From an uncultured Bdellovibrionales bacterium (GTDB taxonomy: Bacteria; Patescibacteriota; Minisyncoccia; Moranbacterales; UBA1568), in contig CAYNMD010000001.1 of assembly GCA_964398485.1 (NCBI GenBank), positions 5,072-69,071 of the forward strand: DNA of 64,000 nt, read 5' to 3'. The position numbers and the translations under genes are program-made. Below, one piece after another: positions 4,798 through 43,976 of this stretch. Each line of letters opens with the position of its first letter. The first letter of the stretch is position 1. The notes beneath the pieces are model-generated. The model was not told the DNA's origin. It saw nothing but the letters and a program-made list of their open reading frames with translations, and made no database searches.

Positions 4798-5808
4798 TTA
4801 CTTGGGTGTAACGACATTTTTACATTGGCCCAGGGCGTAGCATTCGATATTATCGATTGTGGTGGAGAGAATGCGTTCGAGTGCTTCTTTGGAATAGAAG
4901 GCAATGTGTGGAGTGTAGACGACATTATCTCGACCGAGAAGGGCGTGGTCCTTGGCGAGCATCTGCAGTTCTGGTGCGCCATCTTGTTTGTTGAGGAGCT
5001 CCTTCTCTTCTCGGACAAGTAGTTCGCCTTCGAGGACATCGATGCCTACTCCAGCGAGTATGCCTTGGTCGAGTCCCATCATGAGAGCATCGGTTTCGAC
5101 GAGTTCACCGCGGGCCGTATTGATGAGAATGGTGCCGGGCTTCATGAGATTGATATTGTGTTGATTGATGAGGTGGTGAGTCTCTTTGGTGTAGGGAGTG
5201 TGCAGAGAAATAATATCTGATGATTCGAGGAGTTTGTGCAGCGGCACATACTGGAAGTCGAGCACTTCGGAGAGAAATTGATTCGGAAAAGCATCGTAGG
5301 CGAGTACCTTCATACCAAAGCCTTTGGCAATTTTGATCACATGGAGGCCAATTTTGCCAGCGCCGACGACTCCGAGTGTCTTGCCTTTGAGATCAAATCC
5401 GCGCAGTCCTTCGATAGCAAAGTCACCGGCGAGTCTTCTCACGTGAGACTTGTGCACATTTCGGGAGAGTGCCAGGATGAGGGCAAAGGTGTGTTCGGCT
5501 ACCGTATTTTCTCCATACGAAGGAACATTGGAAACGAGGATAGCACGTTCTTTGGCAGCTTCGAGATCGATATGATCAAAGCCGGTAGAACGGGTGACGA
5601 TGAGTTTGAGTTTGGGGAGGGCGTGGATGACTTCCGCGGTAACCTTACTGTAAATAAAGACAGAGAGGACTTCGCACTCGGCGAGTGAGGCGAGGTCTTT
5701 TTCTTCGATCGTACGATCAAAGAAAAAAAGCTGATGTCCTGCAAACCGTTCTTTGAGGGTTTCTTCTTCCCACTTTTGGATTTCAAAAAAGGCGAGCTGC
5801 ATAAGCAA
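4798..5808 (-). CDS. D-isomer specific 2-hydroxyacid dehydrogenase (D-lactate/phosphoglycerate dehydrogenase family)
   Basis: NAD-binding GVVGAGKIGLHV, catalytic domain motifs of the D-2-hydroxyacid dehydrogenase family. Confidence 0.85.
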   Translation of the reverse strand: MLMQLAFFEIQKWEEETLKERFAGHQLFFFDRTIEEKDLASLAECEVLSVFIYSKVTAEVIHALPKLKLIVTRSTGFDHIDLEAAKERAILVSNVPSYGENTVAEHTFALILALSRNVHKSHVRRLAGDFAIEGLRGFDLKGKTLGVVGAGKIGLHVIKIAKGFGMKVLAYDAFPNQFLSEVLDFQYVPLHKLLESSDIISLHTPYTKETHHLINQHNINLMKPGTILINTARGELVETDALMMGLDQGILAGVGIDVLEGELLVREEKELLNKQDGAPELQMLAKDHALLGRDNVVYTPHIAFYSKEALERILSTTIDNIECYALGQCKNVVTPK

Positions 5809-7822: not shown

Positions 7823-7896
7823 GGGCGATTAGCTCAGGTGGTTAGAGCGCGTCACTGATAATGACGAGGTCCCAAGTTCGAGTCTTGGATCGCCCA
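7823..7896 (+). tRNA. tRNA-Ile (anticodon GAT)
   Basis: Cloverleaf folded by hand: acceptor GGGCGAT/ATCGCCC, anticodon stem CGTCA/TGACG, loop CTGATAA, T-arm CCAAG-TTCGAGT-CTTGG; no encoded CCA. Confidence 0.85.
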
Positions 7897-7928
7897 CATC
7901 TGGAAGGCAGCGTCCAGAAAGTATATAC

Positions 7929-8002
7929 AGCGGGGTAGAGCAGTCTGGCAGCTCGTCTGGCTCATAACCAGAAGGTCGGTGGTTCAAATCCACCCCCCGC
8001 AA
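7929..8002 (+). tRNA. initiator tRNA-fMet (anticodon CAT)
   Basis: Near-identical architecture to bacterial initiator tRNA (GCGGGG..GAGCAG..CTCATAA..GGTTCAAATCC..CCCCCGCAA); 1:72 mismatch (A x A), A11:U24 in the D-stem. Confidence 0.8.
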
Positions 8003-8072
8003 CAAACTTCGCATTCAGCAGGTGACAGATACTGAGGCATCTTCTCTTGCTTGGCTAAGTTGGGTATAATTT

Positions 8073-8146
8073 GCCAGGGTAGCTCAGTTGGTTAGAGCAC
8101 GGGACTCATAAGCCCGGGGTCGAGAGTTCGAATCTCTCCCCTGGTA
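8073..8146 (+). tRNA. tRNA with CAT anticodon (elongator Met or Ile-lysidine type), atypical
   Basis: Acceptor GCCAGGG/CCCTGGT with G1.U72 wobble, D-arm GCTC-AGTTGGTTA-GAGC, loop CTCATAA, anticodon stem CGGGA/GCCCG with an A31.G39 mismatch, T-arm GAGAG-TTCGAAT-CTCTC. Confidence 0.6.
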
Positions 8147-8162
8147 CTGGGCGAAAATTGAA

Positions 8163-8226
8163 TATCACGGGGGCGTACCCACCCGAACGACTGAGAGCCG
8201 TTCAGTCGGGCGGGGCTCAGCTGGCT
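8163..8226 (+). repeat. partial duplicate of the tRNA-Asp 5' region (ATATNACGGGGGCGTA...GCTCAGCTGG) interrupted by a 37-nt hairpin-forming insert
   Basis: Direct comparison with the start of the intact tRNA-Asp at 8457-8482: about 25 nt identical if the insert CCCACCCGAACGACTGAGAGCCGTTCAGTCGGGCGGG is removed. Confidence 0.6.
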
Positions 8227-8472
8227 ATGTACACTGTTTATGTTTTACAAGATAATCGGGGAAGGTTATACAAGGGCATGACCAATAACCTGGTTCGACG
8301 ACTTGCAGAACATAAAGGGGGTACAACAAAAACTACGCGTTCTATGAAGGATCTGCGTGTTGTATACTCCGAAGAGCATCCCGACAGAGTGTCAGCAAGA
8401 AAGCGAGAGATGTATTTAAAGTCTGCTGCTGGGAGGAGGTTTTTGAAGAAAATTTTATATACGGGGGCGTAG
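8227..8472 (+). CDS. GIY-YIG nuclease superfamily protein (UPF0213/YhbQ-like)
   Basis: YTVYVLQDNRGRLYKGMTNNLVRRLAEHK GIY-YIG motif; ATG at 8227 preferred over the tool's TTG at 8158; stop codon TAG overlaps the first 10 nt of tRNA-Asp. Confidence 0.7.
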   Translation: MYTVYVLQDNRGRLYKGMTNNLVRRLAEHKGGTTKTTRSMKDLRVVYSEEHPDRVSARKREMYLKSAAGRRFLKKILYTGA

Positions 8473-8539
8473 CTCAGCTGGTTAGAGCGACTGCCTGTCA
8501 CGCAGTAGGTCGCCGGTTCGAGTCCGGTCGTCCCCGCCA
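8463..8539 (+). tRNA. tRNA-Asp (anticodon GTC), CCA encoded
   Basis: Acceptor GGGGGCG/CGTCCCC (one G.U), D-arm GCTC-AGCTGGTTA-GAGC, anticodon stem ACTGC/GCAGT, loop CTGTCAC, T-arm GCCGG-TTCGAGT-CCGGT, discriminator G + CCA. Confidence 0.85.
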
Positions 8540-9406: not shown

Positions 9407-11008
9407 TTACTGCGTGTTGGTTGAGGCGTAGTACGCGTTGCAACCGACAGCGTACTCGTTCAGCGTGAGACCTTCCATGAGTACGAGGCCTAGCTCAGCA
9501 ACCGTACTGGCGCTGCTGCCGTTGTAGGACACCTGAAAATGAAGGTGTGTACCGGTTGAACTCCCTCCGGTACTACCAACCGTTCCCAGTTGATCCCCCT
9601 GGTTCACTGCCCCAGAAGTTATGAGGCTTTGAGCTGTCATGTGGCCATAAAGAGTCTTGTAGCCATTGCCATGGTTGACCCTTACCCAATGACCGTAGCC
9701 AGATGCGTCGTAACCGTAGTCACCGGTATCGACCGTACCACTTGCCGCAGCATAGATCGGCACATTGCTCTCCGAGCCATTCTGTTGGGAATAGTCGTCG
9801 AAGTCGAGCGAATAGTATCCGCTACCCGTATGGTAGGTATCGGTACCCCCGCCACAGAACACGGTACCGCCAGCTTGAACTGTCAACAGCCAGTTCTTTC
9901 CACCAGGCAGAGGAAGTTTCATAGCCAGAAGACTGCGGACCGGCCAGACATTCCTTGACACTGATTTGTTTTCGGCTGCCTTGTGACCAGCAGCAACACC
10001 AGAGGACCATGCCTTGGTGGGCGTACCCACCACTGTGGTCGATGACCACCGCGTACTTGTTGTATTGGTGAATGGGTGCCCAGTAGTCAGAGCTGGATTC
10101 AAGTTCTCGATATCCAACAAACTTCTCAGGTCAACGATGTTGGGAAGACGCCAGTCGGTGTAACCGAAGTTGGCATTACTGCCCGTATTCATGTTGGCCA
10201 CATAGTCCAAGGCCTGTTGCCAAGTGCCGCCGGAAAGACTGGAATTCTCCGTCCACATGAGACCAGTGAATCGATCAGTCACCGTGCCATTGCCATGGTT
10301 GATGAACCGAGATACAGGCGGGGTAACGCCAACTTCTAGGTCACCGTCATCTCGGGTGGCATAGCTCGTTGACTGACCAGTCTTTTGAAGGGTTATCTTC
10401 CCTCCACTTCCTGTCCTTACTGGCCACACATACCGTGTGCCCGCCTTACTGCCCGTTGCGAGACCTCCTGTTTCAAATTGGGCAAGCCATGCACCGCCAC
10501 CTGGACTACTTGCCCAGCCCGAGAAGGTGGTGGTGGAGGTGTAGTAATAGATAGTAGATCCGGACTGAACATTCGTAAATGGATGTCCACTAGTGATTGC
10601 GGGACCTGTACTTTCATGATTCACGAGACTTAGCAACTCAACCACATTCGGGAGTCGCCAGTCGGTGTAACCGAAGTTGGCATAGGTTCCTGCATTCATG
10701 CCCGCCACATAGTCAAGCGCCTGCTGCCAAGTTTTCGTGCCTGCAGGAAGGTTGGCACTCTGTGACCACATGAGGCCAGTCATGTTGTCCGTGACCGTGC
10801 CGTTCCCATGGCTCGTGAAGCGAGGGCTTACCAAGGGGACGCCAGCCAGGGTGGCGCCGTCGTGTCCGGTACCGGCGCAAGCAATGGATGACCCATATGC
10901 GTCGTAACAGGAAGTCTGGCCGGTTCTTGGCAGTTCCACTGCCCAAGATGAGATCATCAAGCAGGCAAGAAACCAGCCGATGACAAGGGTGCCGATACGA
11001 TTTCTCAT
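9407..11008 (-). CDS. secreted protein with two DUF1566 (Lcl C-terminal-like) repeats and a C-terminal M23 peptidase domain
   Basis: Signal peptide; two copies of ...HGNGTVTD..TGLMW...GYTDWRLPN(V/I)VEL..L; C-terminus HxxxD...GSTGGSSTGTHLHFQV typical of M23/LytM; GC about 56%, higher than the genome. Confidence 0.75.
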   Translation of the reverse strand: MRNRIGTLVIGWFLACLMISSWAVELPRTGQTSCYDAYGSSIACAGTGHDGATLAGVPLVSPRFTSHGNGTVTDNMTGLMWSQSANLPAGTKTWQQALDYVAGMNAGTYANFGYTDWRLPNVVELLSLVNHESTGPAITSGHPFTNVQSGSTIYYYTSTTTFSGWASSPGGGAWLAQFETGGLATGSKAGTRYVWPVRTGSGGKITLQKTGQSTSYATRDDGDLEVGVTPPVSRFINHGNGTVTDRFTGLMWTENSSLSGGTWQQALDYVANMNTGSNANFGYTDWRLPNIVDLRSLLDIENLNPALTTGHPFTNTTSTRWSSTTVVGTPTKAWSSGVAAGHKAAENKSVSRNVWPVRSLLAMKLPLPGGKNWLLTVQAGGTVFCGGGTDTYHTGSGYYSLDFDDYSQQNGSESNVPIYAAASGTVDTGDYGYDASGYGHWVRVNHGNGYKTLYGHMTAQSLITSGAVNQGDQLGTVGSTGGSSTGTHLHFQVSYNGSSASTVAELGLVLMEGLTLNEYAVGCNAYYASTNTQ

Positions 11009-11170
11009 CGATTACTCCAAAAGTTAACAAAACCATAAAACACTAAACTGGTTAAGGTAGCTGCTCTATAGGAGGTCTCCCAAGTTGTTAATGAGCATAA
11101 TTATCCTGGTGTCTTTTGATCGTTTTGTCAATAATACAACAAATAGTATCCTTGTTATTGTACAGACAAT

Positions 11171-11186
11171 ATGTTCTAACTTCGTC
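11171..11186 (+). repeat. 16-nt direct repeat ATGTTCTAACTTCGTC (copy 1)
   Basis: Exact repeat with 11828-11843, flanking the 11204-11800 gene. Confidence 0.7.
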
Positions 11187-11203
11187 CCAGCATCCCCGCC
11201 ATT

Positions 11204-11800
11204 ATGTTTACACTTCAAAAAAGAATACTATTCGTTATCCTTTTCTTGTTTTCTACCGGGATTTTTTTATACATTCTTAACAAGGAAAGAGTTCCTCAAA
11301 ATCCAGAAAGTATCAGCGAGGAATTGCCAATAACACAATCAACAACAGATCTAGGAGACCTCTATAAAGACTGGGTGACTTATCAGAATAGGCAGTTAGG
11401 ATTTCAAACTCTTATCCCAGATAAGAGCCCTCTCACGGAAGAACTGGATGAAAACTTTATATATTTCCCCTTCGATGATAAAGAAATCCCTAGCTTAGGT
11501 AATTTTAGAAGTTCAGTCACAATTGGGATTGCTCAAGGAAATTTTATCAATCGAGGTACACGATATAACCCAAACGAAACAGCCACTAGTAAATATCTAG
11601 GTGAAATAAATGGTTTAAAGGCTTATGAAATTATCCATGAAACAGATACTGGCGAAATCGAAGGGATGTTGACTATGTTTATTGGACCTACTTTTGACTA
11701 CTACATAGACATGTCTGGTGGGGAATTTCCAAAAACATATACACCAGAGGAACAAACAGCCTATCGCATAGTAGTTAAAAACTTTAGACTTATCCCTTGA
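11204..11800 (+). CDS. hypothetical membrane-anchored protein (AT-rich gene)
   Basis: N-terminal TM (ILFVILFLFSTGIFLYIL); no recognisable domain; about 35% GC. Confidence 0.5.
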   Translation: MFTLQKRILFVILFLFSTGIFLYILNKERVPQNPESISEELPITQSTTDLGDLYKDWVTYQNRQLGFQTLIPDKSPLTEELDENFIYFPFDDKEIPSLGNFRSSVTIGIAQGNFINRGTRYNPNETATSKYLGEINGLKAYEIIHETDTGEIEGMLTMFIGPTFDYYIDMSGGEFPKTYTPEEQTAYRIVVKNFRLIP

Positions 11801-12376: not shown

Positions 12377-13114
12377 ATGCTCAAAATTATTTCTCTCAAT
12401 CTCGAACGATCGAAACACCTCCATCTCAACCTCCCATTTTTTCAACGAGAAAATCCTGATGTGCTCTGTCTCCAAGAAGTATTGGAAGCCGATATCGACC
12501 GTATCGCCCAAGAAACAGGCCTGGGGCATCATCTTTGGCTGCGGGATATATTGACCGATGCGCCGGCTAATAGCGATGGCAAAACTGGATACTCTGGCCC
12601 AGCTCTATTTGCTCGTAGTCCCTTTATTGCTTCCGGGAGCGAGTATTACTATATGCCCCAAAACGGTATTCAGCTTGAGCGAGAGTCCGAGTTTTATTCG
12701 GAGACTAACGCTCATGGTATCGTCTGGGCTACGGTGGAGAAAGGGGATGAGCAGTACACCTTGGTAACCACTCATTTTACTTGGTCAGAAGATGGTAGAG
12801 CTACTGAGAAACAAAAATCTGATTTTGAACATTTGAAAAAAATTTTGGATACGCTCCCGCCGCATATTTTGACGGGCGATCTCAATGCTCCTCGTGGTTT
12901 TGGTATATGGGAAAAATTTGTTGCTTATTATGGTAGAGACTATATCCCACAAGGAATCACCTCTACTATCGACCCCAATCTTCATCGAGTGAAAAATCTC
13001 CAGTTGGTGGTGGATGGCATATTTGCTCACCCGATGTATCATGTCGATGAAGTAGCCATGGTTGAAGGAGTGAGTGATCACAAAGCGCTCGTCGCTTCTA
13101 TCACACAGCATTGA
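12377..13114 (+). CDS. endonuclease/exonuclease/phosphatase (EEP) family protein
   Basis: LCLQEV..., GDLNAPRG, SDHKAL motifs. Confidence 0.75.
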   Translation: MLKIISLNLERSKHLHLNLPFFQRENPDVLCLQEVLEADIDRIAQETGLGHHLWLRDILTDAPANSDGKTGYSGPALFARSPFIASGSEYYYMPQNGIQLERESEFYSETNAHGIVWATVEKGDEQYTLVTTHFTWSEDGRATEKQKSDFEHLKKILDTLPPHILTGDLNAPRGFGIWEKFVAYYGRDYIPQGITSTIDPNLHRVKNLQLVVDGIFAHPMYHVDEVAMVEGVSDHKALVASITQH

Positions 13115-13149
13115 GCAGCGTAGATAATTTTTTTTGGCGGGAATGTCTG

Positions 13150-13190
13150 TATAAAAAAGAAAACGGGCACTGTTCGTTGAACAGTGCCCG
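13150..13190 (-). terminator. rho-independent terminator for the minus-strand GC-rich gene
   Basis: Perfect 12-bp stem CGGGCACTGTTC/GAACAGTGCCCG with a 4-nt loop, followed on the minus strand by a U-rich tract (plus-strand A-run 13152-13163). Confidence 0.6.
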
Positions 13191-13209
13191 GGCGGGTCAG
13201 GTGTGACCC

Positions 13210-14016
13210 TTACTTGTTGGAGCGGCGTCCGCTGCGGCGAGCGGTACCGCCGAGAGCGAACAGGGCCAGTGCGGCGAGCGACAGCGAGGCTGGCGTCGGC
13301 ACGGACGAGGTCACCGTGTTGGACCAGTGGGCCGTGTAGTCCTGGCATTTCGCACCGGCGATGCTCGTGTCACCGCAGAAGTTGTACGCCTGCATGATGG
13401 TGGCCGAGAAGCCGGTGGAGCCGTTGATGGTGTTGTCCGTGTACTTCACCACGCCGTTCACCCGGTACTCGTAGGCTGAGCCAGTGAAGCTGATCGAGAG
13501 ATCGGTCCAGGCGTCGTAGTCGATGGCCACGCCGAGGTCCACCCACGCCAAGCCTTCCCAGATGCGGAGGCGCGCGCCGCCGTCACCGTAGTTGGTGAAG
13601 CCGATGATGGGGTAGTCAGTGACGGCTGAACCATTGGTCATGACGCCCCACATGTCGGTGCGGACGTGCCCGTTCTGGGTATTGGCCCACTCCTCGGGGA
13701 TCCAGAGCGCTGCCGAGAGCACCGATCCAGCACCGCCCGAGATGGCATGTTGCTGCCCCTGGGTGTTGTAGAAGGTGCTCTGGTAGGCGGCCGGGCGGTT
13801 GCTCAGCCCATCGGCTTCGGAGATGCCGATGGCGAGGACATCGTTGCGGCCCTGGTAGGTGCCGATGTCACCGAAGCTGTGCGGGTCGTAGCGGTCCGTC
13901 ACCCAGCCCACGGGGGCGTTGTCGAAACTCGGCATCACCAGCGCCGCCTGTGCGGGGAGAATCCCCAGCAAGAGACCAGTCAAGCCGGCCAGGAAAGTCA
14001 GAAACCTCTTCGTCAT
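13210..14016 (-). CDS. secreted protein with PEP-CTERM-like C-terminal sorting signal; very GC-rich
   Basis: ATG at 14014-16 with RBS ACAGGAG (the tool's start is an upstream TTG); signal peptide ...GILPAQA; C-terminus VPTPASLSLAALALFALGG-TARRSGRRSNK (PxP motif + TM + Arg-rich tail); GC about 65% with near-saturated GC3. Confidence 0.55.
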   Translation of the reverse strand: MTKRFLTFLAGLTGLLLGILPAQAALVMPSFDNAPVGWVTDRYDPHSFGDIGTYQGRNDVLAIGISEADGLSNRPAAYQSTFYNTQGQQHAISGGAGSVLSAALWIPEEWANTQNGHVRTDMWGVMTNGSAVTDYPIIGFTNYGDGGARLRIWEGLAWVDLGVAIDYDAWTDLSISFTGSAYEYRVNGVVKYTDNTINGSTGFSATIMQAYNFCGDTSIAGAKCQDYTAHWSNTVTSSVPTPASLSLAALALFALGGTARRSGRRSNK

Positions 14017-14069
14017 GTCGCGAACTCCTGTTGTCAACGAAACACACCCACCACGGGTGCGTTCTGAGG

Positions 14070-14098
14070 AGGATAGAATATTTTTGTACTTTTGTCAA
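14070..14098 (-). promoter_or_regulatory. sigma70-like promoter (TTGACA-N17-TATCCT) for the PEP-CTERM-like gene
   Basis: Read on the minus strand: TTGACAAAAGTACAAAAATATTCTATCCT, about 50 nt upstream of the ATG. Confidence 0.4.
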
Positions 14099-14143
14099 CC
14101 AATTCTTGCGAAGAATCCTTTTTGGAAAACGAATGAGTGATCT

Positions 14144-14806
14144 CTAGATTGAAAGAAGAAGGAACATAACGATTGAGTGGAGAGTGCTCCCCAGAAGGAC
14201 AAAGACATGGAAGATCTCATGCATCCAAAAGTATCGCTTGGGAGGGAAGTGATCCTCCAGAACGAAGAAGAGAACACCAAGGGTGTAAGCAATCCCACCA
14301 CTTGCGAGGAGGATAAGCATGAGAGAAGTGAGATTCTCTCGCAGGGGTTGGAAAGCGATGAGGATCAGCCATCCCATGGCGAGATAGAGTGTCACAGAGA
14401 GGAAAGAGGGGCGTCGGAGATCAAAAAGTTTGATGCCAAAACTTACGAGCGCCAATCCCCAGATAACGCCAAAGAGTGACCAGCGCCAGCCACCATCTAG
14501 CCCAATAAAAAGAACCGGGGTATAGGTCGCTGCAATGAGAATGGAAATGAGGGCATGATCGAGTCTTTGTGCCCAGGCTTTGGTGCGAGGCCACCGTGGC
14601 GATAGGAGGTGGTAGCTGGTACTGCCGAGATAGAGGAGTATCATCCCACTGCCAAAAAGAGTGTACCCAGTGATATGCCAACCATCGAGTGAAGAGGATT
14701 GGATCAAGAGAAGAACGAGAATAGTGATAGCGCCAGCTGTTCCAACGAGATGGAGGAGTCCGCTGACAATGTCGTTGGAGCGGTCGCGAAGCGAGGTGAA
14801 TTCCAT
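14144..14806 (-). CDS. hemolysin III family channel protein (HlyIII/PAQR/YqfA)
   Basis: 7-TM protein, 220 aa, with HlyIII-family conserved His residues (YHL..., MHEIFH). Confidence 0.85.
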   Translation of the reverse strand: MEFTSLRDRSNDIVSGLLHLVGTAGAITILVLLLIQSSSLDGWHITGYTLFGSGMILLYLGSTSYHLLSPRWPRTKAWAQRLDHALISILIAATYTPVLFIGLDGGWRWSLFGVIWGLALVSFGIKLFDLRRPSFLSVTLYLAMGWLILIAFQPLRENLTSLMLILLASGGIAYTLGVLFFVLEDHFPPKRYFWMHEIFHVFVLLGSTLHSIVMFLLLSI

Positions 14807-14823
14807 ACTATGATGGAGAAAGG

Positions 14824-14897
14824 TGGACCGTATCGGATTCGAACCGATGACCCCCGCTTTGCAAAAGCGGTGCTCTAGCCAACTGAGCTAACGGCCC
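14824..14897 (-). tRNA. tRNA-Ala (anticodon TGC)
   Basis: Reverse complement GGGCCGTTAGCTCAGTTGGCTAGAGCACCGCTTTTGCAAAGCGGGGGTCATCGGTTCGAATCCGATACGGTCCA; G3.U70 Ala identity pair; anticodon loop TTTGCAA. Confidence 0.85.
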
Positions 14898-21004: not shown

Positions 21005-23593
21005 ATGACAGAGAAGAAAAAAGGTACTAGAAAAAGCATTGAACCAATAGATGAAATTATCGTCAAAGGGGCTCGGACGCATAATCTCAAAAATATTACC
21101 GTTTCGATGCCACGTAATAAGATGGTGGTGTTTACGGGACTTTCCGGATCAGGGAAGTCATCGCTTGCTTTTGACACCATTTTTGCTGAGGGACAAAGGC
21201 GGTATGTCGAAAGTCTTTCGGCCTACGCTCGGCAATTTCTCAACACCATGCAGAAGCCAGATGTGGATGAAATTGTGGGGCTTTCGCCAGCTATTTCTAT
21301 TGATCAGAAATCAGCGAGTCGGAATCCTCGTTCTACCGTAGCTACCGTAACGGAAATATATGACTATCTGCGAGTCCTCTATGCTCGGCTCGGGCGGCCA
21401 CATTGTCTCGAATGTGGACGGGAAATTAGCAAACTCTCGAGCGAGGAGATGCTTGAGGTGGTCAAAGAAAAAGTCCATGCACTGCTTAAGGATCCCAAGA
21501 AACAAGATCTGCCGGTAATGGTCCTGGCGCCGGTGGTGCGAGGGCGTAAAGGGGAGTACTATCAAATGCTGTACCATGCGCTTGGTCGTGGGTTTACCTC
21601 TATCTATCTTGATGGAGCAAGGAAGAGTCTCCGTGAACAGGTGGTCCTCAAGAAAAATTTCAAACACAATATTGATCTCGTGGTCGACGAATTTTTGGCT
21701 CGTGATTTTAAGCAGTATCAGGCTGATACCGAAGTACGTCTCTCGGAATCAGTTCAGCGAGCACTTGAAGAGGCAGAGAATATCGTCAAAATTCGAATTG
21801 GGGAAGAAGAGTTTCTTCTCTCAGCCAAGTTTACTTGTCCGTATGATGGGTTCTCCTATCCCGAAGTAGAACCGAGACTGTTTTCTTTCAATTCTCCGTA
21901 TGGAGCCTGTCAGGCTTGTAATGGTCTTGGGACCAAGCATTTTTTTGGCGATGAGCCCTGTGAAGTATGTAATGGGACTAGACTAAGGGAAGAGGCCCAA
22001 CACATTCTTGTAGGTGGCAAGAACGTTATTGATCTTACTCGACTGACGACAGAGGCAGCCTATGACTTTTTTATTGAGCTCGATCTTACTGAACGGGAAA
22101 AACAGATTGCGGCGGTGGTCCTCCGTGAGATCGAGAGTAGACTGCAGTTCCTCCTCAATGTTGGTCTCAATTATCTCACTCTTGATCGACGTGCTAATAC
22201 GCTGTCTGGTGGTGAGGCCCAGCGCATTCGTCTCGCGAGTCAGCTTGGGTCACAACTGGTAGGAGCACTCTATGTGCTGGATGAACCAACTATTGGTCTT
22301 CATCAAAGAGATAATCAGCGACTTATCAAGACTCTCGAGGCTCTCAGGGATCTTGGTAATACGATTATTGTTGTTGAACATGATGAGGATACTATTTTTG
22401 CTTCCGACTATATCGTAGATATTGGTCCTGGGGCAGGAGTGCATGGAGGTGAGGTGGTAGTGGCGGGAGATTTGGAGACACTCCTCACTGCGAAAAAAAA
22501 TACTTCTGGTTCGCTGACACTGGCGTATCTCCGTGGTGAAGAAAAAATTCCTGTACCAGAACGGCGTACGAAGGATAAGGGGACAATTCGGATCCGGGGT
22601 GGCCGAGTTTTCAATATCAAGAATCTGAGTGTTGATGTCCCCCTGGGCCGATTTATAACCGTAACGGGAGTATCAGGATCAGGAAAATCTTCTTTCTTAT
22701 ACGAAATTCTCCATAAGAATTTACAGGCACGTTTTGATCGACGGTATAAATCCAATCGAGTGGAAAATTGCGACAGCATCACTGGGACGGAATACCTCTC
22801 ACGAGTAGTGATGATTGATCAGAGTCCGATTGGTCGCACCCCACGGTCCAATCCTGCTACTTATACCGGTGCCTTTGGCCACATTCGTGACCTGTTTGCG
22901 GCCACCGAAGAGGCAAGGGTCCGCGGCTGGAAACCAGGACGATTTTCCTTTAACCGCCCAGGGGGACGCTGTGAAACGTGTGAGGGCAATGGTTTTATAG
23001 CGGTCGAGATGCACTTTCTTCCAACGGTATATGTGCCATGTGATGTGTGTGATGGGAAGCGTTTTACCAAAGAGACACTGGAGGTGACTTACAAGGACAA
23101 GAATATTCACCAGGTGCTTGCTATGACGATCGAGGAAGCGTATCAATTTTTCTATGATATTCCAGCGATTGCCGATCGACTCAAGACACTCAATGAAGTT
23201 GGTCTCGGGTACCTTGAACTTGGTCAATCAGCGACGACACTTTCGGGTGGTGAAGCACAACGAGTAAAGATTGCGAGCGAACTCTATCGCCAGTCAACAG
23301 AACGAACGATCTATCTTTTGGATGAACCTACTATTGGTCTTCACTACGCTGATGTTCGAAAGCTCATTGAGATTCTCGATCGGTTGGTAGTTAAGGGCAA
23401 TACAGTGATGGTGATTGAGCACAATATGGATCTTATTAAGAGTGCTGATTATATTATTGATATTGGTCCAGAAGGAGGAGTGGGGGGTGGAAAGCTTGTC
23501 GCGAGTGGCACGCCTGAGGAAGTTGCTAAAGCACCTGGTTCACATACAGGGGAATATCTCAAAAAAGTGTTACGAGCGAGCCAGTCGAAATAG
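21005..23593 (+). CDS. uvrA: excinuclease ABC subunit A
   Basis: Two ABC modules ([18 protein letters not shown]; LSGGEAQR x2), zinc-finger Cys clusters, UvrB-binding-like segment ([14 protein letters not shown]); the tool ORF starts at an upstream TTG (20957), ATG at 21005 preferred. Confidence 0.9.
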
Positions 23594-30655: not shown

Positions 30656-31072
30656 ATGGATATTAACTATTGGGCTGTGTTTGTGTGCGCGATACTTTCA
30701 ATGGCGATCGGTTTTCTTTGGTATGGACCGCTCTTCGAAAAGAAGTGGATGGAAGTCAATGAGCTTTCTCCTAATGACCTCGCCAAACGAGAATCAATGC
30801 AAAAAAGTGCCGGACCGCTGTATGTTGTCCAGTTTATGCTTTCTCTCCTGCAGATTTATATTTTGGCACATTTTATTAAAGGGTGGGCAGAAGTTTCTGG
30901 AGTGGAAAGTGCTCTTTGGATTTGGCTTGGCTTTGTGATGCCGACCGTGGCTGGACTTTCGATGTGGAACGCAAAACCCGCCAAGGTTCGTTGGATGTTA
31001 TTTGGTCTCTCGACTGGCTATCAACTGGTGAGCTTTGTTGTTTTTGGTCTCGTTTTAAGTATCTGGAAGTAG
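30656..31072 (+). CDS. DUF1761 family membrane protein
   Basis: MDINYWAVFVCAILSMAIGFLWYGPLFEKKW... typical DUF1761 N-terminus; internal ATG of the tool ORF 30521..31072. Confidence 0.5.
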   Translation: MDINYWAVFVCAILSMAIGFLWYGPLFEKKWMEVNELSPNDLAKRESMQKSAGPLYVVQFMLSLLQIYILAHFIKGWAEVSGVESALWIWLGFVMPTVAGLSMWNAKPAKVRWMLFGLSTGYQLVSFVVFGLVLSIWK

Positions 31073-31084
31073 TATAGGAAGAAT

Positions 31085-31468
31085 ATGCGTTCACGTTCTC
31101 TCCGCCAGCTCAGGAAGCTTCTCGATGGGTGGTCAGTGCCACATTTTCTTTTTGGAGTAGTAGTAGCTACGGCGGCTATTGCTTTTGAGTGGTCTCTGGT
31201 AGTAGCTTTTGTCACGATGCTCGTCGTAGCAGTTGCTTGGGAGTATTTTGAGAGACGTATCAATATTAAGGAAGCATTCGGAAATCCGTGGATGGATATT
31301 GTTCTTCCTATCATGGCTTTTGGCCTCACACTTCTTTTGGTTGATCAGAAGCCACTTCACCAAGAGGAGCATATTGGCCTTTTTGTTTGTGCAACCGGCC
31401 TTTTTTTGTTTGTGAATGGAGCTGCTTGGAAGGCTCGTTTTGAACGTGATCGAGATTTTTTGAGCTAA
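31085..31468 (+). CDS. hypothetical membrane protein
   Basis: 3-4 TM helices; no domain. Confidence 0.35.
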   Translation: MRSRSLRQLRKLLDGWSVPHFLFGVVVATAAIAFEWSLVVAFVTMLVVAVAWEYFERRINIKEAFGNPWMDIVLPIMAFGLTLLLVDQKPLHQEEHIGLFVCATGLFLFVNGAAWKARFERDRDFLS

Positions 31469-31510
31469 GGCCGCGACCAGATCGCTTATTGAGGGTAGGG
31501 GATGATATTC

Positions 31511-31539
31511 TTGACATAAATTAGGTATTTGTGTACACT
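31511..31539 (+). promoter_or_regulatory. sigma70-like promoter TTGACA-N17-TACACT
   Basis: Sequence motif upstream of the GC-rich ORF. Confidence 0.35.
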
Positions 31540-31632
31540 TCGCAATTGTCTACGGTCAGGCATGACCAAAGAACGTGCAGAAGGGGTCCACCGGATCTCG
31601 CACGCGCCCCAACCCAATGAAGGAGGCACCCA

Positions 31633-31982
31633 TGCAACAACCTCAAGCCCAGATGACCGCCGGTGGCAAGCCCTCGCGCCGCAGCGGCCGTGGCAGCAAG
31701 CGCTTCACGATTGTCCGCAATGGCCAGAAGATCGAGGGCCTGAACGAGAGCCAGCTGCGCGGCCTGATCGACTGGGAGCACTGCGACGGCGAGCACAAGG
31801 GCGAGAAGGTCGCAAGCCTGTTCATCGGTCAGGCCGGTGACGACCAGATCGCCATCGCTCAGGGCGACGACAAGCGTGGCATCACGCTCTACAAGCCGGC
31901 CGAGGTGTTGGTCGCCATGAGCCGCCTGGACGCCCTGTGCCACAAGGTGTTCGACAAGCAGCGCGCCGCCGGCAAGATCTGA
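31633..31982 (+). CDS. hypothetical protein encoded by an extremely GC3-rich ORF (likely horizontally acquired)
   Basis: ATG at 31633 preceded by AAGGAGG; 116 aa; almost every codon ends in G/C, unlike all neighbouring genes. Confidence 0.5.
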
Positions 31983-32379
31983 TCGCTGGCGCGCCGCCGG
32001 CTACAACTGAAACTGCTCACCGCGGAACCCACGGTTGAGCCCAACCCACCCGAGCATCCAGAAAGGAGATGACTCGGGTGAATTATTTTTTAGAAAAATT
32101 TACAACAAAAAAACTGACCAAAAGCCAGTGATGATTTCTCTTATGCTGCTTGAAAAACCGAAAGCCCTCAATGCGGGAGGATGGGTCTGGATCCCCGTAA
32201 ATGAGCTTGTCGGAAAAATTCATTTTCCCGGTAAACCAGGTGGGTTCCAATTTTCGCCCTCCGTTCTGAAGGCTCTGGGGTCATTATAGCACGTTTTTAT
32301 TTCTGTCAATAGCCTGATCAAAAAATTTTGATAAATGAGGGGGCGCTCGATGCTATACTACAGTTACTCATGCTGCAAC

Positions 32380-41132: not shown

Positions 41133-43976
41133 TTGTCTTTTTTCTTAGCGCTTCCAGTCCTGCTTATGCCTACGAGTCACGGCAAAAAGAATGTCATTGA
41201 AATTCGGGGAGCTCGGGTCAATAATCTCAAAAATATCGATATCGATATCCCGCGTGATGCCTTTGTCGTCGTGACGGGACTGTCGGGATCAGGGAAATCA
41301 TCACTCGCTTTTGATACGTTGTATGCGGAGGCAAACCGACGTTACGTCGAGAGTCTCTCTTCGTATGCTCGGAATTTTATGGAGGGATACGACAAACCCG
41401 ATGTCGATTCCATCAAGAATCTCTCCCCAGCCATTTCGATCGATCAAAAAAGTGTATCGAGGAGCCCACGATCAACAGTGGGTACTATGACTGAGGTGTA
41501 TGATTACCTCCGGATTCTCTTTGCTAAAGTCGGAACCCCGTGTTGCCCAAGTTGTCACCAGATTTTGTCACGCACCTCGCCGTTAGTTATCTTGGAGCGC
41601 CTGCTTCTTTTGCCAGCAGAGTCCAATGTAGCGGTGCTGGCCGAAAACAAGCAGTGTGAAGGAAAGACACTTGGTGATATGCTCGATCTTATTTCTGATT
41701 GGGGATACGTACGAGTGTTGTGGAAGGATGAGATGTTTCTTATTAGTGAATTGAGATTGCGAGCAAATCTCAGTGAACGAGGTCCTATTGCTATTGTGGT
41801 TGATCGCTTTAATCTTGATCCAGCTCGGCCTGATAAGGAGCGCATACTGGATTCTCTTCACTCAGCTTTTCATAGCGGCGAAGGGATTTTGAAAATCCGA
41901 GTAGACGGGGAATATTGGCATACCTTTTATGAAAAGTTTCGTTGCGAAAAATGTCAGATAGAATTGCCAGAATTTACCCCGGCTCATTTTTCTTTTAATA
42001 ATCCAGAAGGCGCCTGTGGGCATTGTGGTGGCCTCGGGGTGACACTTAAGTTTGATCCGAAGCTAGTGATCCCCAACGAAAATCTTTCATTGGCCGAAGG
42101 TGCTATACGTCCCTGGAGTAAAATGAATGGCGGTCGTGGAGGCAATCATGGCCCCTATCTTATTTTGGAAGCAGTAGCTAAGCGTGAGAAGATTCCGCTC
42201 AATGTTCCAATCAAAAAACTATCAGCCAAGCAGAAACAGTTTCTACTCTATGGTGAAACAAATACCACAAAGGATGGGGTATTTACTGGAGTTATTGGGA
42301 TGCTGGAAGAAAAGTATCAAGATACCAAATCTGATCACTTACGAGGAGAAATTGAGACTTATATGTACACGGAGACTTGTCCTGATTGTCGAGGGAAACG
42401 TCTCAAACCGGCATCGTTATCAGTCTTGGTAGCTGATCAATCGATAGACCAGATTGTTGATCAAAGTGTGGAACTCCTTCTTGAGTGTTTTGATAAGCTC
42501 AAAACAAAATTGTTGACTGATGGTCACCCTCAGAATTTGGTGGATACTTTATTTCAGGAAATGGATACAAGGCTCTCGGCGGTTGATAAAGTTGGTCTGG
42601 GGTACCTGACTCTTTCTCGAGGAGCGGATACTCTTTCGGGTGGCGAGGCTCAACGAATTCGACTTTCGGTACAAATCAAGTCAGGACTTTCCGGTATCAT
42701 CTATGTTTTGGATGAGCCATCAGTAGGTCTTCATAGTCGAGATACAGATCGTCTCATTAGGGCTCTCGATGAACTTCGAGGTGCTGATAACTCGCTGGTG
42801 GTTGTTGAGCATGATGTAGCTATTATGCGTAAGGCTGACTGGATTATTGATCTAGGTCCCGGTGCTGGTAAGGAGGGTGGCGAAATAATTTTTTCTGGCC
42901 CCCCAGAGAAGCTTTTCAAATCAAAAATTCTTACCGGCGAGTACCTTTGTGGGAAGCGTTCGGTTGTTGAGCCTGCCAAACCTCGTAGTGGTAATGGAAA
43001 CAATCTTGTTATAGTAGGGGCTACTGAACATAATTTGCAGGGGGTAACAGTAGAAATTCCTCTAGCAAAATTTATTGCTGTAGCTGGTGTCTCTGGTTCT
43101 GGGAAATCAACCTTGGTCCATGATATTCTGGCTCGCGCTCTGGCAAAGCGCTTTTATCAAGCTAAAACTCCCCCGGGTGCCCATCAAGAGATTTGTGGTC
43201 TAGAACATATAGATAAGGTGATTACGGTGAATCAGGATCCGATTGGTCGTACCCCCAGATCGAATGCTGCTACGTACACAGGAGTATTCGGCCATATTCG
43301 TGAGGTGTTTGCTGATACGCCAGAGGCCAAAAAAGAACGTTATACTGCGAGTTCCTTTAGTTTTAATATGCGAGGTGGACGATGTGAGATCTGTCAGGGA
43401 GGAGGATTGAAGAAGATTGAGATGTATCTTTTGCCTGATGTCTATATTCCTTGTGAGGCATGCAGCGGAACGCGCTATAACCAAAAAACTCTCTCACTAC
43501 AGTATCGAGGAAAAAATATTGCAGAAGTTTTGAGCATGACCGTAACCGAGGCAAGGGGATTCTTTCTCGACCAACCAATGATTGAGGAAAAACTCAGAGT
43601 GCTTGAGGAGGTTGGATTAGGTTATTTGGTGCTGGGACAGAGTGCCCCAAATCTTTCTGGTGGCGAGGCTCAACGTATCAAGCTCGCTACTGAACTTGCT
43701 CGAAAATCAACTGGCAATACACTGTATATCCTTGATGAGCCTACGATCGGTCTTCACTTTGAAGATGTGCGGAGATTGCTTGAGGTCTTGAATGCATTGG
43801 TTGATCGAGGCAATACAGTCTTGGTTGTGGAGCATAATATAGATGTTATTCGAGCGGCTGACTGGGTGATTGAGATGGGTCCAGATGGCGGGTCGCGTGG
43901 TGGACAAGTCTTGTTCTCTGGTACGCCAGATAAATTGAAGAAAATAAAAAATAGCCCTACCGCCAAGTATCTCTAA
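41133..43976 (+). CDS. UvrA paralog (second full-length excinuclease ABC subunit A-like protein)
   Basis: Two ABC modules, zinc-finger cysteines, long insertion domain; divergent from the uvrA at 21005. Confidence 0.85.

Follow-up and report, generated by a model that had tools for sequence, protein, structure and literature searches.

A GC-rich cassette for a predicted surface protein with a PEP-CTERM-derived C-terminal tag in a Candidatus Moraniibacteriota genome

We analysed a GC-rich gene on the minus strand of a 64,000-nt stretch of DNA (hereafter the window; positions 5,072 to 69,071 of contig CAYNMD010000001.1, assembly GCA_964398485.1). Together with a promoter, a stem-loop with which the transcript probably begins and a strong terminator, the gene makes up a compact cassette, the features of which are listed in Table 1. 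We consider it probable that this cassette was acquired horizontally, has long been resident in Candidatus Moraniibacteriota (Moranbacteria), and encodes a Sec-exported, C-terminally membrane-anchored, glycan-binding surface protein. Loci of relatives used in the comparison are denoted by numbers with the prefix L.

The compositional anomaly of the gene is large and sharply bounded. Its overall GC content is 0.644, with 0.55, 0.52 and 0.86 at codon positions 1, 2 and 3, respectively, and that of the whole window is 0.457. For the 41 other open reading frames (ORFs) of at least 200 aa in the window, the GC content at third codon positions (GC3) has a mean of 0.412 (standard deviation 0.061, maximum 0.571), which places the gene 7.3 standard deviations above this mean. 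The elevated GC is confined to about 13160-14050, corresponding to the coding sequence (CDS) plus the terminator stem, and the upstream intergenic region (14017-14143) has a GC content of 0.43. The longest ORF begins further upstream, with a TTG (14037), but the spacing of the ribosome-binding site and the alignment of homologs favour the ATG at 14016 as the start codon. A similar TTGACA-like promoter, equally distant, is present in the cassettes of L089, L090, L092 and L009, the GGAG of the ribosome-binding site is kept in the homologous cassettes, and the terminator sequence is homologous in L089, L090, L087, L092, L009 and L006, the last five of which lie at other genomic sites. A preliminary description of this locus had reported a very GC-rich gene with near-saturated GC3 and a foreign composition of high-GC type, a consensus-like promoter of its own with a ribosome-binding site, and a terminator with a perfect 12-bp stem, and all of these were borne out. 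An antisense ORF of 133 aa (13666-14067, plus strand) was discarded as a candidate gene: antisense ORFs of such length are to be expected where DNA is GC-rich, and its apparent conservation only reflects that of the sense gene.

We assign the host to Candidatus Moraniibacteriota, a lineage of the Candidate Phyla Radiation (CPR), from the genes that surround the cassette. The best named relatives of UvrB, which is encoded 2 kb from the gene, are almost all from Moraniibacteriota/Moranbacteria (91% to 74% identity), with an Undibacterium sp. sequence (83%) as the lone outlier. The surrounding gene content, comprising type IV pilus genes, UvrABC, TopA, the start of the dcw cluster and many small unannotated ORFs, fits this assignment.

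The preliminary description had allowed for a contaminating segment, and the sharp GC change at both ends of the gene is what speaks for this or for an assembly chimera. However, the exact protein is encoded in three assemblies, ENA ERZ27283041 (146 kb), Logan SRR6837583 (13.9 kb) and ENA ERZ27282891 (2 kb), in which both junctions are identical; the 13.9-kb contig has the gene order of the window, and the 2-kb contig is base-for-base equal to the window over both GC boundaries. A fourth data set (SRR26721177) carries the orthologous locus of a close relative, L089. Besides, the GC boundaries fall at the limits of CDS and terminator, with a promoter and a 5' untranslated region (UTR) that are host-like in composition. 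Because of the identical junctions in three assemblies and the orthologous locus in a close relative, a chimera or a contamination is for practical purposes excluded.

The comparison with related genomes indicates that the cassette has long been resident in Moranbacteria, where it is found at several sites. In L089, whose UvrB is 98.5% identical to that of the window, the cassette is present at the same site, between an HlyIII-family gene and an Exo_endo_phos-family (EEP) gene, and the promoter, UTR and terminator are about 95% identical to those of the window. Between these two loci, the five flanking genes have synonymous divergences (dS) of 0.34-0.51, nonsynonymous divergences (dN) of 0.007-0.037 and dN/dS ratios of 0.015-0.08; for the gene itself dS is 0.22, dN 0.115 and dN/dS 0.52, and the changes are clustered in patches. 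The cassette adjoins a 2-hydroxyacid dehydrogenase gene in L090 (TopA 88.6% identical) and L092 and occupies a third site in L087 (UvrB 72.8%), and in L099 (the same as L006) and L091 (the same as L007) the gene adjoins a CAP-domain gene and copper-homeostasis genes. The copies in Moranbacteria have diverged to about 59-60% protein identity. Cassette copies at differing sites have the 5'UTR hairpin and the homologous terminator in common, and this pair of elements was not found beside any locus with a diderm-type context. In a relative whose UvrB is 91% identical, the block from the HlyIII-family gene to UvrB is kept and the gene is absent; synteny of this relative with the window stops at 14163.

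Two loci, L004 and L006/L099 (CAZBFG010000032.1 and CAZPXK010000003.1), come from metagenome-assembled genomes (MAGs) titled 'uncultured Bdellovibrionales bacterium', yet they carry the Moranbacteria UTR hairpin. The best named matches of the pseudouridine synthase of L099 are from Moranbacteria, and the context of this locus, with its CAP gene and copper genes, is like that of a Moraniibacteriota MAG. Judged by these features, the 'Bdellovibrionales' label of both MAGs is probably wrong. When these two loci are set aside, the closest diderm-labelled sequences are only about 58-62% identical to the protein, and no donor is evident.

These data bear directly on the proposal of the preliminary description that the gene is a recent, un-ameliorated import from a high-GC donor. 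Such an import would agree with a GC3 of 0.86 in a host of 0.41, with codon usage typical of high-GC diderms, with the absence of the gene from the relative with the 91%-identical UvrB, and with its differing position among relatives. We nevertheless regard it as quite improbable, given that the syntenic ortholog in L089 has persisted, with GC3 undiminished, while neighbouring genes accumulated the above synonymous divergence, that Moranbacteria copies of about 59% identity share a 5'UTR hairpin of normal AT content and a terminator unseen at diderm-context loci, and that no donor is in sight. The notion of a recent acquisition is too simple for a long-resident gene that has diverged to about 60% protein identity within Moranbacteria, at several sites, with GC3 of 0.74-0.87 throughout.

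As for signs of mobility, no relative was found in viral contigs or plasmids. The sole flanking direct repeat, of 15 nt and 87% identity (13065-13079 and 14128-14142), lies near both GC boundaries and is probably a chance occurrence. A tRNA-Ala gene (14822-14897, minus strand) is located about 800 bp away, just past the HlyIII-family gene and within the conserved block. In several Moranbacteria (L091, 1-9915; L099, 2783-7387; L090, 9343-9804) the homolog adjoins copper-homeostasis genes, which encode Cu-ATPases, a cupredoxin, a CsoR-like repressor and DsbD-like proteins, and a CAP-domain gene is also present in two of the loci; the window has no such neighbourhood.

The high GC3 is shared by the Moranbacteria copies. 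It is 0.862 in the window, 0.866 in L089, 0.861 in L090, 0.814 in L092 and 0.770 in L087, and 0.74-0.77 in L004, L006 and L009, while the flanks of the cassettes have a GC content of 0.46-0.49. At every CPR-labelled locus the GC of the gene exceeds that of its flanks by 6-18 points, whereas at diderm-labelled loci the difference ranges from -9 to +4 and GC3 follows the host, down to 0.35. C-ending codons account for 56% in the gene versus 13% in the GroEL of the host; since GroEL of the same genome favours U-ending codons, translational selection was ruled out as the cause of the high GC3. Under a two-state neutral model with host equilibrium, the divergence between the window and L089 needs an ancestral GC3 of 0.98-1.06, and the polarised synonymous changes number 5 S>W versus 3 W>S. 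Given the ancestor required by the model and the near balance of the two directions of change, GC3 seems to be held up rather than fading. This may be due to selection acting on the stability of the mRNA, to gene conversion biased towards GC if the locus recombines, or to frequent exchange of the cassette among Moranbacteria.

The stem-loop in the 5'UTR is a hallmark of the cassette. With its start about 7 nt downstream of the -10 box, it is probably located at the very 5' end of the transcript, and a conserved TTTCnTTGACAAC box comes after it. A search for the pattern ACACAYCC-N3-6-GGRTGTGT, which has an 8-bp stem, returned one copy per locus, just upstream of the homolog of the gene, in 10 loci, and none elsewhere in the 98 loci scanned. 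The copies include those in L089 (5203-5223), L090 (9948-9968), L092 (9952-9972), L087 (9946-9966), L006 (9951-9971) and L009 (882-902). The exact pattern has no match in the window because the window copy deviates from it at one position, a G-U variant. In the hairpin alignment 48 of 48 cells pair; as there is a single compensatory pair and 148 of 500 shuffles do equally well, the covariation is not significant. An Rfam search over 13100-14200 at E<=1 returned nothing but a chance miRNA match, and the stem-loop fits no Rfam family.

The encoded protein consists of a predicted signal peptide, a core domain and a C-terminal tag. The preliminary description had called it a secreted protein with a signal peptide, and this is supported by the AQA motif with the following A, kept among close relatives in the family alignment, and by a helix of residues 2-17 in the AlphaFold2 model. 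The model (mean predicted local distance difference test score 85.3) shows a beta-sandwich of residues about 25-232 flanked by this N-terminal helix and a C-terminal helix (residues 243-261), and the sandwich contains a single Cys pair, at residues 213 and 223. The core domain was matched by no Pfam or NCBIfam model, and its profile has no sequence relative among solved structures (PDB) at E<=1. A hit to Glyco_hydro_32N in Pfam (E 0.0036; 17.3 bits, cutoff 22.1) was rejected, since its score is too low and the fold does not agree with that model.

A word-index search returned 411 homologs at E<=1e-3, and an exhaustive profile search of 1.84 billion representatives returned 978 clusters at 50% identity; a metagenome scan for close relatives found 5 loci only. 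Some members of the family stand alone, at about 265 aa, and others are multidomain proteins with 1000-2400 aa; in Bacteroidota-labelled loci the long proteins with the domain end in other C-termini. One copy, of homolog P0019 in L098 (165-954), carries a frameshift near residue 150, which marks either a pseudogene or a sequencing error. Many aromatic and polar residues are invariant in the family, as in FYNTQG, R-x-D-x-W, GFTN and Q-x-Y-N. There is no invariant or near-invariant Glu in the family alignment, and no ExDxxE motif. On this account the core is read as glycan-binding and not as a GH16-type hydrolase, and at the level of the fold class we infer that it is a glycan-binding module. 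A secreted or surface GH16/PL7-like enzyme that degrades polysaccharide would share the jelly-roll fold of the model, but this fold also includes many lectins and carbohydrate-binding modules; with the above Glu and ExDxxE motif missing, about 10% sequence identity to such enzymes and no relative in the PDB search, an enzyme is an unlikely alternative.

The C-terminus of the protein, VPTPASLSLAALALFALGG-TARRSGRRSNK, aligns in register with the VPEP (PEP-CTERM), VPDGG (VPDSG-CTERM) and VPLP/VPVP (VPLPA-like) tags of homologs. Among the 124 matches listed, 76 end in a VPEP tag and 25 in a VPTP tag, and many are annotated with PF07589. The models TIGR02595 and PF07589 gave no match for the full protein or for its 39-aa tail, even at E<=10, and two further VPTP tails likewise miss both. 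As controls, VPEP tails of two homologs, one of them from a Moraniibacteriota MAG, scored 27.4 and 22.2 bits (cutoff 16), and the VPDGG tail of a homolog matched TIGR03778 with 29.7 bits. In the protein studied here the near-invariant Pro-Glu-Pro of PEP-CTERM is replaced by Pro-Thr-Pro. The PEP-CTERM architecture proposed in the preliminary description therefore stands in its three-part layout and its position, as read from the sequence and the AlphaFold2 model (motif, helix, basic C-terminal cluster, and signal peptide at the other end), and does not stand as a match to the PEP-CTERM models. In 19 non-redundant members of the VPTP clade, the residues ASLPL after the motif are 0.9-1.0 conserved, and the five-residue linker preceding the motif is 0.3-0.8 conserved (mean 0.58). 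Because the models fail while the tail aligns in register with true tags, we call the tag a PEP-CTERM-derived variant; judged by its conservation in the clade it is a conserved derivative, neither a decayed remnant nor a domain that passes the models. In the CPR-labelled MAG locus L058, two adjacent ORFs (9884-10693 and 10638-11570) have an identical PEP-CTERM tail, VPEPSSFALLAVGTLGIAGYARRKKLS, which suggests a recent duplication of the tag or gene conversion.

The absence of an exosortase from the window, stated in the preliminary description, was likewise confirmed. In the precomputed Pfam annotation of 12 neighbourhoods, no exosortase (PF09721) is on record for the genes called in the window and in the stretches of 10 kb before and about 2 kb after it, nor around seven homologs and one UvrB relative, and direct Pfam scans of 30 ORFs with multiple transmembrane (TM) segments from CPR and diderm loci found none. 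In the visible part of the genome (the window, L085 and L086), which is a small fraction of the whole, there is one PEP-like tail only. CPR cells are regarded as being without an outer membrane. The PEP-CTERM system has been described as confined to lineages that have one, and PEP-CTERM genomes often hold 20 or more tagged proteins (Haft preprint, 10.1101/2023.06.07.544157). The host falls outside those lineages, because Candidatus Moraniibacteriota are CPR bacteria. A literature search found no paper that ties exosortase or PEP-CTERM to CPR/Patescibacteria.

The protein could still be a working exosortase substrate, if an enzyme of the exosortase/archaeosortase family encoded outside the visible region recognises VPTPAS or VPEP and removes the tail, so that the jelly-roll domain is either attached or set free. 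The strong conservation of the motif and of the residues after it, as against the linker before it, agrees with this, and so do the TIGR02595-passing tags kept by other Moranbacteria and CPR-labelled copies, the identical tails of the two adjacent ORFs of L058, and the exchange of several exosortase-type tags within the family, which is like that of true substrates. On the other hand, no exosortase is on record in about 86 kb or in about 20 neighbourhoods, the directly scanned multi-TM ORFs included; the window has one such tail where 20 or more are typical of a system tied to the outer membrane; no published link with CPR was found; and the tail misses the PEP-CTERM models. We hold a working substrate to be possible but rather unlikely.

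A membrane-anchored, glycan-binding surface protein of a long-resident cassette could operate as follows. Transcription from the cassette's own promoter would yield a monocistronic mRNA with the stem-loop first and the strong hairpin last. 5' stem-loops and strong 3' hairpins stabilise mRNAs in other bacteria, and the 5' hairpin may do so here. The protein would be exported by Sec and its signal peptide cleaved after AQA, and the C-terminal helix with its Arg-rich stop-transfer tail would hold it at the cell surface. This would expose a GH16/lectin-like jelly-roll of about 210 aa on the outer side of the cytoplasmic membrane, in a CPR cell without an outer membrane. The tail would be descended from a diderm PEP-CTERM sorting signal, having passed from diderms to CPR, and in this lineage of Moranbacteria the motif would have shifted from VPEP to the conserved VPTPAS. 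The domain may bind a polysaccharide of a host or a matrix without hydrolysing it. The elevated dN/dS fits a surface-exposed protein that possibly binds a host or matrix, and its fast evolution may result from this exposure.

Zoogloea and Aquincola have been described as requiring PEP-CTERM proteins to form flocs (PMC9850573; Gao 2018, cited in PMC11393006), and episymbionts of Zoogloea have been described among the Patescibacteria (PMC11393006). By analogy with these two descriptions, binding of a matrix or a host by the protein is plausible.

Several points weigh against this interpretation. Anchoring in the membrane without cleavage is an assumption, and VPTPAS(L/F)(P/S)L is conserved beyond the need of a mere anchor. 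Many CPR-labelled copies retain the canonical VPEP, and this retention, together with the conserved motif, is a hint in the sequences of an enzyme that recognises the tail. The exosortase screen spans about 86 kb of the genome, and an enzyme elsewhere is possible. At about 10% sequence identity, the fold match supports glycan binding at the class level only. The estimate of amelioration is a rough one, and the polarised changes are very few. In a neighbour-joining protein tree the clade of cassette copies was recovered in 1 of 100 bootstraps, with one Burkholderiaceae sequence inside, so that the protein tree is poorly resolved; the case for a common origin of the Moranbacteria copies is made by the non-coding elements that they share. 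A single CPR clade, recovered in 0 of 100 bootstraps, was rejected, and with such values the protein phylogeny was dropped as a means of dating or counting transfers.

A more far-reaching proposal has two parts, which as a whole we put forward tentatively and think doubtful: CPR bacteria may keep a functional sorting of PEP-CTERM type, and, separately, an active process may keep the GC3 of the cargo gene at about 0.8-0.87, which would then not be a fading relic of the transfer. The sorting pathway in Moranbacteria would recognise the derived VPTPAS, and its enzyme may be a cryptic relative of exosortase or an unrelated protein. The maintenance of GC3 may come from selection for mRNA stability in concert with the hairpin and the terminator, or from gene conversion biased towards GC, if the locus is that of a surface antigen and prone to recombination.

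In itself, the horizontal acquisition of a surface protein is ordinary; what is unusual is the CPR host, the derived tag without a visible sorting enzyme, and the long-kept foreign GC3. PEP-CTERM has been described as an outer-membrane system strictly tied to exosortase, and many CPR genomes are now seen to have a protein family with this tag or with a derivative that is conserved. This raises the question of whether minimal, probably host-attached cells anchor proteins by the tail alone or use an unrecognised processing enzyme. The locus is also a clean natural case of foreign base composition being kept, with a GC3 of 0.86 in a 0.41 genome, across a divergence of 0.3-0.5 changes per synonymous site in the neighbouring genes. 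Such a case speaks against routinely taking a GC anomaly as the clock of a recent transfer. Finally, a surface domain that is lectin-like and evolves fast is a plausible candidate mediator of contact between CPR cells and hosts or the surrounding matrix.

Table 1. Features of the cassette and of its encoded protein, in window coordinates
Feature	Position	Strand	Description
Sigma-70-type promoter	14070..14098	minus	-35 TTGACA (14098-14093), 17-nt spacer, -10 TATCCT (14075-14070); 10/12 consensus matches
5'UTR stem-loop	14042..14062	minus	ACGCACCC-GUGGU-GGGUGUGU; begins ~7 nt past the -10 box
Ribosome-binding site	14025..14029	minus	AGGAG, 8 nt upstream of the ATG; read from sequence
CDS	13210-14016	minus	ATG at 14016, TAA at 13210-13212; 268 aa; GC 64.4%, GC3 86%
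Signal peptide (residues 1-24)	13945..14016	minus	N-terminus MTKRFLTFLAGLTGLLLGILPAQA followed by A, predicted cleavage after AQA; read from sequence
Core domain (residues ~25-232)	13321..13944	minus	beta-jelly-roll of the concanavalin-A-like lectin/glucanase type
C-terminal tag (residues 238-268)	13213..13305	minus	VPTPASLSL motif, hydrophobic helix, Arg-rich tail
Intrinsic terminator	13154..13190	minus	CGGGCACTGTTC-AAC-GAACAGTGCCCG then TTTTCTTTTT; perfect 12-bp stem, 3-nt loop, T-run

Some other features of the window were recorded. The second most GC-rich ORF (9407-11008, minus strand; GC 0.54, GC3 0.57) is possibly a further surface gene of foreign origin or atypical composition; its product, a secreted protein of 533 aa, has Lcl_C and Peptidase_M23 domains. 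At 31001-32000 the GC content peaks locally a second time, at 0.538; the ORFs there are small (127 and 140 aa) and have no Pfam match on record. Besides UvrB and UvrC, there are two UvrA-like paralogs, of 862 aa (21005-23593, plus strand) and 936 aa (41166-43976, plus strand). Four tRNA genes (Ile, Met, Met, Asp) lie at 7823-8539 on the plus strand, with a small GIY-YIG ORF nearby.

Among known systems, monoderm bacteria usually sort proteins by the C-terminus through sortase and its LPXTG signal, and the protein resembles sortase substrates in the succession of motif, TM helix and basic tail. A sortase gene lies near the homolog in the Moraniibacteriota MAG L091, and there is no sortase in the window. 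Unlike those substrates, the protein has a tail, SSVPTPASLSL, without an LPXTG-like motif and with no Thr-Gly at the required positions. With GH16 glucanases, PL7 lyases and legume-type lectins it has the beta-jelly-roll fold in common, but it is about 10% identical to them, does not have the conserved catalytic Glu pair and has no sequence match to a solved structure. PepA, the flocculation protein of Zoogloea and Aquincola (NF033554), is similarly an exported protein of about 260 aa with a PEP-CTERM-type tail. NF033554 is the best NCBIfam match of the whole protein (E 7.6e-5), yet its score of 22.6 bits is far under the cutoff of 80 and the core is unrelated by sequence; nearly all of this score comes from the tail, because the last 39 residues alone give 20.4 bits. 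The closest counterpart is the PEP-CTERM/exosortase system (TIGR02595, PF07589; Haft et al.). The protein differs from it in having P-T-P in place of P-E-P, so that both models missed it, and in belonging to a CPR host with one copy in about 86 kb and no exosortase found there. It resembles that system in combining a signal peptide with a tag of Pro-x-Pro motif, hydrophobic helix and Arg-rich end, and its family swaps PEP-CTERM, VPDSG-CTERM and VPLPA-like tags, with which the tag described here is in register.

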